Of a stretch of DNA of 64,000 bases, positions 24,394-33,409 are shown piece after piece (the stretch's first letter is position 1; every line of letters starts with the position of its first letter). The notes under the pieces are model-generated. The model saw only the letters and a program-made list of their open reading frames with translations, made no database searches and was not told the DNA's origin. A program made the position numbers and the translations under genes. Source of the DNA: a virus (lineage: Duplodnaviria; Heunggongvirae; Uroviricota; Caudoviricetes); IMG/VR virus record IMGVR_UViG_3300020451_002055. One strand, written 5' to 3'.

Positions 24394-25215
24394 TCAAAGA
24401 GGATCAAGCCGACCGGCTGCCACTCCATCCTTGACGCAGAGGAAGAGTTCCTTGCTCAGAGGATGAGGCAATGCCTCGTCGTCTTCTTGCATCCTATTGA
24501 CAACCCTCTCGATCGTCGGTCGATGCTCTGTGCTGATGGCGAGGAACATATCTCGGCTGGGGATCGCAACGTAATACTCGTTGCCCAACTCAGCCGACAG
24601 GTTGCGATACATCTGAGGTAAAAGGATGCGAGATGAGTCGTAGCCGTCTTTCGTATTGAAGATGCAGGCCTTCGCCGTCATCTCCCCGTCATCATCTTTG
24701 AGGCCTACAAGATCGTATGTCATTCCCTTTGTAACATCCCAAAGGTTCTGCAGAGCAAAGCTATAGAGTTCTTCGGGATCTTCGATACCCCAATCCTCCA
24801 TCATGTCCCGGCGTATCGACATGGTGCATTGAGGGAAGTCGATGACGAGGCTGATAACGCAATCGTTGACCCATGGGATCGTCGTGATCATATCTTCGGG
24901 CACGCTCTCCGCCTGCTCCCGAGTCAGAATTCGGGGCATGATGCGGCTCAGAACAGACAGGAAATCGCTTGTATCGACTTCGGGTTCTGAGTCTGTAAAA
25001 TCAAAGAGCGTATAGAAATAGTTCATGACGATCTCATGACCGTTCTCCGGGTCTAGGCTGACCATGCGGAACAGGTTAGAGATATCGAAAGAACTGCCGT
25101 CGATGCTCAGTCGGAGCTTTCCTCTGTATTCGACGTTGCTTTCGGGTCGGATTCCGTTGATGAGATGGGCGATCTCGTATCCGAACTCGTCTGGTTTATC
25201 GGGAAGCCGTTCCAT
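24394..25215 (-). CDS. hypothetical protein
   Basis: 273-aa acidic ORF. Confidence 0.45.
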   Translation of the reverse strand: MERLPDKPDEFGYEIAHLINGIRPESNVEYRGKLRLSIDGSSFDISNLFRMVSLDPENGHEIVMNYFYTLFDFTDSEPEVDTSDFLSVLSRIMPRILTREQAESVPEDMITTIPWVNDCVISLVIDFPQCTMSIRRDMMEDWGIEDPEELYSFALQNLWDVTKGMTYDLVGLKDDDGEMTAKACIFNTKDGYDSSRILLPQMYRNLSAELGNEYYVAIPSRDMFLAISTEHRPTIERVVNRMQEDDEALPHPLSKELFLCVKDGVAAGRLDPL

Positions 25216-25604
25216 ACAGTAGATTTCATTCCTCGTTCGTCATACTCCTTCATGATCGACCGAAGAGCGGCTTCTTCTGCAGGCCACACGACTTGTAAAT
25301 TCCATTCCGTTTTTCCGCGGATATAAGAAAGAGGATTTTCTCTTTTCTCAAAGGCCATATCGACATTGACCCCGACGCCCATGCCTCCTATAGCAAAACC
25401 GAGAATCGAAATCAAAATCAGAGGAGTGTATCGATCCTCTTTGCTCTTCTTGTTTATCGTTGCCCATCCGAAACAAGCAACAGCGACACCTATGATGCAG
25501 GCTGAGATAATGCCGAAAACATAGGCCCACATGATGTTCGCCTCTGCAGAAGCAAGAACCTGCTCATGCAGCGCATGAAAGACCTCGACAGGCATGCCTT
25601 CCAT
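25107..25604 (-). CDS. membrane protein (3 TM)
   Basis: 165 aa, hydrophobic N-terminal half. Confidence 0.4.
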   Translation of the reverse strand: MEGMPVEVFHALHEQVLASAEANIMWAYVFGIISACIIGVAVACFGWATINKKSKEDRYTPLILISILGFAIGGMGVGVNVDMAFEKRENPLSYIRGKTEWNLQVVWPAEEAALRSIMKEYDERGMKSTVWNGFPINQTSSDTRSPISSTESDPKATSNTEESSD

Positions 25605-26455
25605 CAGTCGTCCTCATGAGCAAGAACGCGGGTCTTGACGACTTGCTTGATCCGTTCATCTCGGGTCACCGTCTTGTGGCTCGTTCTGTAACCCTGAATG
25701 TCGTCCATCCAAAGAAGCGGTCCGATCTTCTTGTTGGCCTTGCTCTTGCGCTTGAGCGTGAAGTATTCGCCGCTGAACTGAATCCCGATCGCCGCAGCCG
25801 CGCATGTTAGAACAACGCCGCCGATGACAACGAACGGGCTGAACAACCATGAGCAGATGGCGGTCGCGGCGATGATACCGATGACAGCGGGTATGCCGAA
25901 GAACTTGCCTCCGTCAACGATGTTGGTCATGTAGGGGATCGTTTCGGGAGTCTTCGGGTAAAGACGGATGAACGTCCTCTCCTGATTGTCTCGCCGACCA
26001 TACTTGCTCGATGTCAGGAACTCGCCGTTTGCCTCGTAGGTCAGCAGTATGTTCTCGTTGTTCGGCGAGGTAAACGCGACCGTGACATACCATCCCTTGC
26101 GGACATACGGGATCAGAGCCCTCTTGATCTCCGCCAGAGTCGGACGGCTGTTGAGGTTGCTGGTATCGAGCAAACGAGAGTATTCGAAACTGTCCCACTT
26201 CGCTTTGATGAGGTTTTCAATCGCTCCTCTGATGTCCTTGATAACCTCTTCCCGTCTCTCGAAATCGACCTCGGAGGGAGCGGTTACGCCGTCGTCCTCA
26301 GGAGTCAGGAACTCGTTCAGAGCCGCCTCGTCGGAAAGGGGGTCGAGGGACATTCCGAGCGCCGTCGAATCGTTCTCATCAAAAGCCATCGCATCGAGGG
26401 CTTCGGTTCCGAGAGCGGTGTCATCCGGCGATACTTGCTTTTGCTTCTTGCCCAT
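25604..26455 (-). CDS. C-terminally membrane-anchored protein, paralog of 26559..27284
   Basis: Shared L.EIK.A(L/I)(I/V)PYV...WYV block followed by two TM helices. Confidence 0.5.
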   Translation of the reverse strand: MGKKQKQVSPDDTALGTEALDAMAFDENDSTALGMSLDPLSDEAALNEFLTPEDDGVTAPSEVDFERREEVIKDIRGAIENLIKAKWDSFEYSRLLDTSNLNSRPTLAEIKRALIPYVRKGWYVTVAFTSPNNENILLTYEANGEFLTSSKYGRRDNQERTFIRLYPKTPETIPYMTNIVDGGKFFGIPAVIGIIAATAICSWLFSPFVVIGGVVLTCAAAAIGIQFSGEYFTLKRKSKANKKIGPLLWMDDIQGYRTSHKTVTRDERIKQVVKTRVLAHEDD

Positions 26456-26558
26456 GGCTCTAGATTACCTCGGAGCGGTTACACTCTCTAAATTTCGCGG
26501 GAAAGGGAGTCCATCAGTAAGCGGCGGGAGGCTCCGTTGGGAGCCGAGCGCCGATGCG

Positions 26559-32815: not shown

Positions 32816-32877
32816 TGAGATTTCTCCTTTGGTAAGATGGTCTGGCGAACTGTGACGACCATCATCGCAAAAAAGAG

Positions 32878-33249
32878 TTACACTCGCAGCGTCTCGGTCT
32901 CTACTTTTTCGGAATCTCCGTCGCGGCATTTCACTTCGATATCAATGCGACGATGATCAGGTGAAACTAGGACTTTGAATGAAAAGGGCTCGCCGTCCGT
33001 TATGAACAGTCGAGCCCCTGATATGGAGACATCTGTTGAGTAGTCTTCGTTTTCGTATAGGCAGCGAGCGACCCGTTCTGCTTCTGCTGCCAAATCAGGC
33101 GTAATCTGATCCTCGACCTCTACTTCAACGATTGAGTAACCGTAGCAGGTAGAGTATGCGAAGAGTCGATTAGGCACTGGCTTTGCCGCCGCTGACTGCT
33201 CCAACCAGAGCGCTGATAACAGCGATGACGGCAATGACAACGAGAGCAA
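32878..33249 (-). CDS. hypothetical protein
   Basis: 123-aa ORF whose start overlaps the next gene; the true start may be internal. Confidence 0.35.
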   Translation of the reverse strand: MLSLSLPSSLLSALWLEQSAAAKPVPNRLFAYSTCYGYSIVEVEVEDQITPDLAAEAERVARCLYENEDYSTDVSISGARLFITDGEPFSFKVLVSPDHRRIDIEVKCRDGDSEKVETETLRV

Positions 33250-33409
33250 TGATGGTCACCTTGAAGATGGCACCGATCAGCGATGGCAGAGCGAGAACAG
33301 TCAGCAGCACCGCCAAGAACAGCCTGCCAGCAGACGGGTCTCGCGAGTAGTTGATCCAAGCATGAAAAGCGAGGAACGCGATGATGAGGAAAATCAGAAA
33401 GCCGATCAT
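33170..33409 (-). CDS. small membrane protein (2 TM)
   Basis: 79 aa, very hydrophobic. Confidence 0.4.
   Translation of the reverse strand: MIGFLIFLIIAFLAFHAWINYSRDPSAGRLFLAVLLTVLALPSLIGAIFKVTIIALVVIAVIAVISALVGAVSGGKASA

Follow-up and report, generated by a model that had tools for sequence, protein, structure and literature searches.

We analyzed a stretch of 64,000 nucleotides (the window) from the IMG/VR virus record IMGVR_UViG_3300020451_002055, assigned to Caudoviricetes, and describe here an island of membrane-protein genes at positions 25107-33409, with all coordinates counted from the first letter of the window. The island consists of 14 minus-strand open reading frames (ORFs), most of which overlap or have less than 105 nt between their ends, and it includes genes for an SPFH protein of flotillin type, a predicted CPBP intramembrane protease, and an RNA ligase. 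Taking at least one Kyte-Doolittle segment of ≥1.8 in a 19-residue sliding window as the sign of a transmembrane (TM) segment, we found such segments in 12 of the 14 island genes compared to 8 of the 85 other ORFs in the window (Fisher p = 1e-8), and therefore the clustering of membrane proteins is real and non-random. A first-pass annotation of this DNA had listed 13 consecutive membrane-protein ORFs here; the clustering stands, and the hydropathy scan upholds the TM predictions, but the count comes down to 12 of 14, with two soluble products (the RNA ligase and the 99-amino-acid [aa] product of the ORF at 32878-33177).

We compared the island among five related loci, whose SPFH proteins are 80% (L012), 67% (L013), 71% (L008), 56% (L003), and 55% (L009) identical to that of the window. 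Every gene covered in L012 is collinear with the window (SPFH, small TM genes, CPBP, small TM gene, ligase, and then from the gene for a 116-aa protein onward), and L013 keeps the same order without detectable orthologs of the genes that begin at 27288, 27835, 30381, and 30605. CPBP and the ligase are absent from the other three loci and are thus confined to one subclade among these relatives: L008 has only two membrane genes between SPFH and a DUF1444-like gene at the far end, L003 has about eight other small TM genes, and L009 has a few. The constant elements are SPFH and this DUF1444-like gene (24394-25215, minus strand; PF07285, E = 4e-05), which encodes a soluble protein and forms the downstream anchor bounding the variable island; its orthologs (35 to 57% identity) end the variable stretch in L003, L008, L009, and L013. 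The content of the stretch between SPFH and the DUF1444-like anchor is different in every relative examined. Conservation is highest for SPFH and CPBP; divergence is fast among the small TM proteins (25 to 55% identity). This variable synteny, together with the stand-alone CPBP genes found elsewhere (see below), implies that SPFH and CPBP are separable, and judging from gene order, the region acts as a slot in which membrane-protein genes accrete. A megablast search with the 8.5-kb block returned no match among GenBank phages.

The SPFH gene and its origin

The SPFH gene (31058-32815, minus strand) encodes a 585-aa protein of the flotillin/YqiK type, with two N-terminal TM segments, an SPFH domain, and a Glu-Ala-rich coiled coil. 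It matches PF01145 (Band_7) with 60.0 bits (cut-off, 23.6; E = 4e-16) and phrog_200 (E = 1e-16), and its homologs carry the Joint Genome Institute names YqiK/HflC. No NCBIfam model matched it, and a phmmer search against PDB sequences was empty. The C-terminal coiled coil consists of 'VEAEAEAFAIRQRTEAEAAG' with flanking A/E/R/Q-rich helices (approximately residues 430 to 540) and includes EAEAEA; an N-terminal anchor combined with a Glu-Ala coiled coil C-terminal to the SPFH domain is the flotillin/YqiK architecture. Both the flotillin-like identity and the AEAEA coiled coil had been recognized at first pass, and only the length, given there as 586 aa, needs correction to 585 aa, the value that the gene caller of the source contig also gives. 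Escherichia coli YqiK and Bacillus subtilis FloT (COG2268) likewise combine a membrane anchor, a Band_7 domain, and an EA-rich "flotillin" coiled coil in 520 to 590 aa. The window protein differs from them in being phage-encoded and only 38 to 42% identical to its nearest cellular (Planctomycetota) proteins, and its gene has two phage-specific small genes upstream instead of a detectable NfeD-type partner (YqiJ/YuaF). Flotillin/YqiK proteins oligomerize on the cytoplasmic membrane and organize or stabilize it.

An operon partner of the NfeD family is common, though not universal, for flotillin-type SPFH genes, and in bacterial operons it sits upstream of the SPFH gene, as in yqiJ-yqiK and yuaF-floT. 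No neighbor of the window SPFH gene matched NfeD (PF01957) in Pfam, NCBIfam, or PHROGs. The two genes directly upstream encode a 79-aa protein with two to three TM segments by hydropathy (33170-33409, minus strand) and, between it and SPFH, the 99-aa soluble protein (32878-33177, minus strand), with a GTG start as on the source contig. Orthologs of the former (46 to 65% identity) lie immediately upstream of SPFH in L003, L008, L012, and L013, and those of the latter (30 to 41% identity) occur in L008, L012, and L013. Neither protein belongs to a family in Pfam, PHROG, or NCBIfam, and both were therefore set aside as NfeD candidates. A ClpP-like gene of the window was also considered as an NfeD-type partner and rejected because it is 13 kb distant and prohead-protease-like.

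The closest matches to the SPFH protein are about ten phage-clade orthologs (44 to 80% identity); beyond this clade, every named match belongs to the Planctomycetota, mostly to the Phycisphaerales (38 to 43% identity, E ∼ 1e-100). We also scanned 185,579 species genomes with peptide patterns derived from the phage-clade SPFH proteins only and confirmed 25 loci, 23 of them in Planctomycetota and many in marine metagenome-assembled genomes (MAGs). In these genomes, no NfeD partner accompanies the SPFH gene, which stands alone among core genes (aspartyl-tRNA synthetase, DnaB, acetyl-CoA carboxylase). Other phage SPFH genes are far more distant. SPFH genes of unknown function have already been reported in RaK2-like and Vi01-like phages (PMC7760394, PMC3220722), and these and other cultured large-phage copies (PHROG 200, including those of Vibrio phages) are likewise phage-borne and carry the SPFH domain, but they are at most 29% identical to the window protein, and most are shorter. 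Because the window SPFH groups with Planctomycetota and not with the other phage copies, it was acquired independently of them, and on its sequence affinity the gene is derived from a Planctomycetota/Phycisphaerales lineage. The low identity to cellular relatives, the conservation across the phage clade (down to 46 to 55% identity), and an ordinary GC content at third codon positions (GC3) indicate that the transfer is old.

Base composition gives a more modest picture than the much higher GC content, and the recent capture from a high-GC bacterium, that the first-pass annotation had proposed. The GC content of the SPFH gene is 0.566 compared to a window gene mean of 0.505 (z = 1.5), its GC3 of 0.64 is unremarkable (z = 0.9 to 1.4), and the excess is located in codon positions 1 and 2 of the Ala/Glu/Arg-rich C terminus, that is, it comes from the composition of the coiled coil. 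Three genes neighboring SPFH have GC contents of 0.546 to 0.556. The composition argument thus fails, and the capture is old rather than recent, although a donor lineage can be named. A much stronger anomaly lies at 3000-9000, where GC content is 0.58 to 0.62 and GC3 reaches 0.81, compared to a GC content of ∼0.49 in the rest of the window; among the products of this block are a HATPase_c protein and one that is DnaB/AAA_25-like. An SPFH protein 35% identical to that of the window is also encoded on L037 (DOZJ01000002.1; 489,927 bp), a contig labeled Candidatus Falkowbacteria UBA11705. L037 is almost as long as the ∼487-kb contigs described below and may be a misbinned huge phage; no other window gene was found in common with the 7.6 kb of it examined.

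The CPBP protein, RNA ligase, and remaining island genes

The gene at 29641-30384 (minus strand) encodes a 247-aa protein that has no Pfam match even at E = 1 and no NCBIfam name, and its identity as a divergent CPBP (Rce1-like/Abi) glutamate intramembrane protease emerges from its homologs. A database search returned 97 of these, a few of which carry PF02517 and one of which is named a CPBP protease by NCBI; among 31 close homologs that we aligned, 6 match PF02517 (best, 7e-07). The motifs are complete: E110, E111, and R115 (EExxxR) and F186 and H190 (FxxxH) are invariant in the 31 sequences, and H224 and D228 (HxxxD) are at least 90% conserved. The predicted transmembrane fold is that of Rce1/SpdC. 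Rce1 (4cad), SpdC (6u0o), and the Abi bacteriocin-immunity proteins share with the window protein the EExxxR, FxxxH, and HxxxD/N motifs and the helical-bundle fold; the window protein differs from them in being too divergent for detection by PF02517 and in belonging to a subfamily found repeatedly in huge viral contigs. Because the CPBP family also includes SpdC, which is inactive, the fold alone is no proof of activity. Given the motif conservation and the PF02517 matches among homologs, we accept the 247-aa protein as a divergent CPBP that retains the catalytic residues and is a predicted protease, as had been proposed from the sequence.

A tblastn search of 50,697 GenBank phage records with the CPBP protein gave no match. 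The same subfamily is present in six other IMG/VR contigs (L039 to L044), all of 138 to 543 kb, where each CPBP gene stands alone among soluble ORFans, with no SPFH gene within 10 kb and no TM neighbors. From this distribution, the CPBP subfamily may be characteristic of huge phages and independent of SPFH. Several database homologs lie on contigs of 226 to 607 kb. Another homolog, P0146, is encoded on a 3.7-Mb bacterial contig (L010), where its neighbors include genes for a Gad2-domain protein, an AAA_14/DUF4143 protein, and another Rce1-like protein, a setting that is defense-island-like.

Two genes beyond CPBP, the island encodes a soluble 265-aa nucleotidyltransferase of the RNA-ligase family (28660-29457, minus strand), which matches PF09414 with 59.7 bits (cut-off, 27; E = 5e-16) and phrog_548 (E = 5e-18) and receives no name from NCBIfam. 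It carries the motifs EKVDGTN (with the motif I lysine), FGEVYG, and EGIVVR. T4 RNA ligase 2 (Rnl2) and the window ligase both have a nucleotidyltransferase domain with a KxDG lysine motif; the window protein is shorter (265 versus 334 aa), its match to the T4 Rnl2 structure 2hvq is weak (E = 0.05), covers only residues 43 to 170, and showed no C-terminal domain of Rnl2. An RNA ligase inside the block is therefore confirmed, whereas its earlier designation as Rnl2-like is not established by so marginal a match. The ligase stays beside CPBP in L012 and L013. The genes for RtcB (38726-40006), a NUDIX protein (37646-38272), and the PF09414 ligase all fall within 11 kb, and a PP-loop protein is encoded elsewhere in the window. 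Together these four suggest an RNA or tRNA repair toolkit, and the ligase fits better with the RtcB and NUDIX genes 9 to 10 kb away than with its membrane neighbors. RNA and tRNA repair toolkits are typical of counter-defense against anticodon nucleases.

Toward the downstream end, two minus-strand genes encode paralogs with twin TM helices. Paralog A (25604-26455; 283 aa) has a soluble alpha/beta core (approximately residues 65 to 170), two TM helices, and a conserved C-terminal tail (GPLLW..D..GY), and paralog B (26559-27284; 241 aa; orthologs in L012 and L013) has a soluble N-terminal domain and, toward the C terminus, two TM helices. Their relationship is weak (24% identity; BLASTP E = 4e-07) but bears out the earlier pairing of the two by a PYV..WYV block ahead of twin C-terminal TM helices; the common block reads EIK..PYV..WYV. 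The family is very narrow, with six representatives among 1.84 billion proteins, and the soluble core models well and has no known fold match.

The remaining island genes, all on the minus strand, encode small proteins assigned to the membrane by hydropathy. Between SPFH and CPBP lie genes for a 128-aa protein that is anchored by an N-terminal TM segment and has an acidic Glu/Lys-rich tail (30605-30991; L012 ortholog, 55% identity), which resembles in architecture an ORF at 12198-12653 of L003, and for a 75-aa single-TM protein (30381-30608; L012 ortholog, 40%), the stop of this second gene overlapping the start of CPBP. Between CPBP and the ligase lies the gene for a 57-aa TM protein (29448-29621; 80 aa if the start is at 29690), a gene call taken from the source contig, with orthologs in L012 (39%) and, weakly, in L003. 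Beyond the ligase follows the 116-aa protein (28313-28663), which has an N-terminal TM anchor and two CxxC pairs; it had been described as a Cys-rich exported peptide, an overstatement for a TM-anchored protein with 4 Cys in 116 aa, of which C53 is the sole Cys invariant among 5 orthologs (present in L012, L013, L003, and L009). The list is completed by a 141-aa protein with two TM segments (27835-28260; orthologs in L012 [42%] and, weakly, in L008), a 179-aa polytopic protein with four to five (27288-27827; orthologs in L012 [29%] and L003 [27%, E = 2e-5]), and, as the final gene of the block, a 165-aa protein with two (25107-25604; L013 ortholog, 34%).

The rhomboid protease and the phage setting

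Approximately 8 kb from the island, the gene at 16895-17467 (minus strand) encodes a 190-aa rhomboid intramembrane serine protease. The protein matches PF01694 with 74.7 bits (cut-off, 22.6; E = 1e-20) and has intact HxxxxHxxxN (HGGWGHIISN), GASG, and GHLFG motifs, which agrees with the first reading of this gene. GlpG, AarA, and YqgP/GluP share with it the PF01694 core and the Ser-His dyad motifs, and it differs from these bacterial rhomboids in being phage-encoded and rare: the same 50,697 GenBank phage records gave no tblastn match, PHROGs gave one weak match to an unnamed PHROG, and a search of IMG/VR by exact peptide patterns, which detects close relatives only, confirmed no locus. Assignment as a rhombosortase (TIGR03902) was rejected (33.4 bits against an equivalog cut-off of 84). 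The rhomboid co-occurs with SPFH in L013 (∼10 kb downstream) and on a 47.5-kb contig bearing P0008 and P0222. CPBP and rhomboid enzymes cleave membrane-embedded substrates, and with both proteins unmatched in the GenBank phage records, it was fair to call two classes of intramembrane protease unexpected in a phage. The start of the rhomboid gene is overlapped by 8 nt by a gene for a 321-aa protein with a C-terminal double zinc ribbon (17460-18425); an ORF in the variable island of L003 (15601-15699) matches the last 33 residues of this protein at 82% identity.

The CPBP and SPFH proteins were found identical on marine metagenome contigs of up to 486,961 bp, including contigs from the Tara Oceans run ERR598996, and a syntenic relative in IMG/VR (UViG_3300020429_000539; 488,051 bp) has conserved flanking genes and an SPFH protein 56% identical to that of the window. 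Most window ORFs have no family; those that do include several DNA methyltransferases, dCMP deaminase, uracil-DNA glycosylase, NUDIX, RtcB, a PAS histidine kinase, and Fic, VWA, ferritin-like, and ClpP-type proteins, the last resembling prohead proteases, and there is one tRNA gene. For two window proteins, the top GenBank phage matches come from uncultured phages, 642 and 595 kb in size. We looked across the 64-kb window for ribosomal, tRNA-synthetase, and other core bacterial genes, which would point to a bacterial chromosome, and saw none, in keeping with the phage setting claimed at first pass. That the window is part of a ∼487-kb marine huge phage is well supported, but not proven, by these comparisons. 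Since the SPFH gene was taken from a Planctomycetota lineage, Planctomycetota are the best host hypothesis, and the host is probably a planctomycete of the Phycisphaerales type.

Other features of the window lie outside the island. The sole candidate virion-related gene encodes the ClpP-like protease (46121-46723; phrog_94, E = 1e-28), which scores 77 bits against prohead-protease NCBIfam models, below their cut-off of 120. A 658-aa ORF (47287-49263) was considered as a structural gene and set aside, with no PHROG, Pfam, or phage tblastn match. A soluble 604-aa sensor histidine kinase (50148-51962) combines multiple PAS domains with HisKA and HATPase_c, and we noticed no response regulator in its vicinity. 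A 412-aa protein (56347-57585) matches Glyco_hydro_56 (hyaluronidase; E = 3e-15), a mostly eukaryotic family that is unusual in phage. In the conserved stretch from RtcB to SPFH, the adjacent ORFs 34054-34434 and 34427-34915 encode small soluble paralogs (E = 3e-08), and a C-terminal motif like theirs is present in L003 at 8468-8995.

Possible roles of the island

The reading that we favor, and consider reasonably probable, is of a plastic accessory island whose membrane proteins would be expressed together and alter the host membrane as separable parts, with no obligate flotillin-protease machine. The island genes are co-directional and nearly gap-free, from which we infer that they are probably co-transcribed and that their products are inserted in the host cytoplasmic membrane during infection; the functional steps that follow are proposed in the same conditional sense. 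The stable core is the SPFH gene, acquired long ago from the host lineage, along with the two small phage-specific genes upstream (79-aa TM and 99-aa soluble). Relatives have filled the slot between SPFH and the DUF1444-like gene with different small membrane proteins, and in this subclade it also holds CPBP beside the RNA ligase. SPFH may oligomerize into a membrane-attached scaffold or cage that stabilizes or compartmentalizes the membrane through a long infection cycle, and CPBP and, separately, the rhomboid could cleave host or phage membrane proteins. The RNA ligase would belong functionally with RtcB/NUDIX RNA repair and be a mere positional passenger in the island. The components would thus share a compartment and maintain or repurpose the membrane during infection while remaining separable. 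The first-pass idea of deliberate remodeling by a single platform is weakened by the variable slot content, the stand-alone CPBP genes, and the lack of any defense-system match in PADLOC.

Several observations weigh against this account. The block stays collinear throughout in L012 and L013, which could instead mean functional coupling. A promoter/terminator scan yielded 18 weak consensus terminator-like matches compared to 9 by shuffle, mostly intragenic, and did not delimit operons in the island. No capsid, portal, or terminase gene lies within the 64-kb window, and the phage identity consequently rests on gene content, the IMG/VR label of the relative, and the huge-phage matches. Finally, the host assignment depends on the phylogenetic affinity of one gene, SPFH, and the relatives of the rhomboid are drawn from mixed phyla.

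One alternative is an integrated flotillin-protease machine, in which an SPFH cage corrals CPBP together with the small TM proteins as substrates or regulators and carries out regulated intramembrane proteolysis in a microdomain. By analogy, HflK/C-FtsH and stomatin-NfeD also have a membrane protease encoded near an SPFH scaffold; three related genomes keep SPFH, small TM genes, and CPBP side by side, in one direction and in the same order, the catalytic motifs of CPBP are intact, and the 79-aa gene (in four relatives) and the 99-aa gene (in three) lie directly upstream of SPFH, the position of NfeD in bacterial operons. The window protease, however, is a CPBP and not an AAA+ or ClpP-like enzyme, and its pairing with SPFH is not conserved: CPBP is absent from L008, in spite of 71% SPFH identity, and from L003 and L009, and its subfamily occurs in the six huge viral contigs with no SPFH gene within 10 kb. 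With the NfeD domain undetected in all neighbors and an unrelated RNA ligase interrupting the block, we regard such a machine as unlikely.

We give a similarly low chance to a superinfection-exclusion or anti-defense island, modeled on T4 Imm/Sp and prophage superinfection-exclusion (Sie) proteins, whose products would block entry of competing phages or destroy membrane-bound defense sensors or receptors of the host. The arguments in its favor are contextual: the CPBP/Abi family is linked to immunity functions, and the P0146 homolog lies beside Gad2-domain and AAA_14/DUF4143 genes. This role would suit a variable slot filled with small membrane proteins that evolve fast and differ by lineage, and in the Vi01-like phage SH19 an SPFH gene adjoins an annotated superinfection exclusion gene (PMC3220722). 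Against it, PADLOC matched 0 of 10 proteins at E ≤ 0.01, and no homology to known Sie proteins was found.

Less likely again is that a huge phage of Planctomycetota, a phylum known for its elaborate internal membranes, builds a microdomain of its own, with a cage of the captured flotillin that gathers CPBP, the rhomboid, and the phage-specific tail-anchored proteins and directs regulated intramembrane proteolysis of membrane proteins of host or phage. If true, this would be a viral counterpart of HflK/C-FtsH.

A lysis-timing cassette, in which the small proteins with two to three TM segments act as holins or antiholins and SPFH modulates the timing of hole formation, is very improbable: several proteins are holin-like in size and TM number, and the terminator-like matches, mostly intragenic, exceed the shuffle expectation, but with no endolysin in the block this reading is without support, there being no endolysin or spanin in or next to it (the sole glycosidase-like gene, GH56-like, is 23 kb away), no PHROG lysis-family match, and no conservation of the small proteins as a pair across relatives. 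Equally improbable is that the window is not phage at all but part of a small chromosome like those of the candidate phyla radiation (CPR), or of a megaplasmid, with the block serving ordinary cellular membrane housekeeping; capsid and terminase genes are indeed missing from the window, and some large homolog-bearing contigs are labeled as CPR MAGs (P0136, Parcubacteria; L037, Falkowbacteria), but 64 kb of mostly family-less ORFs hold no core genes, the PHROG matches are to DNA methyltransferases, dCMP deaminase, prohead-protease-like ClpP, and RtcB, the relative is catalogued in IMG/VR, and cellular SPFH homologs have core-gene neighbors that the window SPFH lacks.

The plastic accessory island remains our preferred interpretation. 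Each protein described here is of a known family; what is new is their combination in one phage, the apparent rarity of a phage rhomboid and CPBP, the recurrence of this CPBP subfamily in huge viral contigs, and the Planctomycetota link. Phage-borne intramembrane proteases appear rare, yet at least seven huge viral contigs encode a member of this CPBP subfamily, a hint that its function may be particular to very large phages. Phage SPFH proteins have been noticed for over a decade with their role unknown, and here one is found in a defined variable slot with a clear donor lineage; across relatives, this slot offers tractable natural variants with and without each partner. The affinity of the SPFH gene also gives a host hypothesis, marine Phycisphaerales, for an uncultured clade of ∼490-kb phages.

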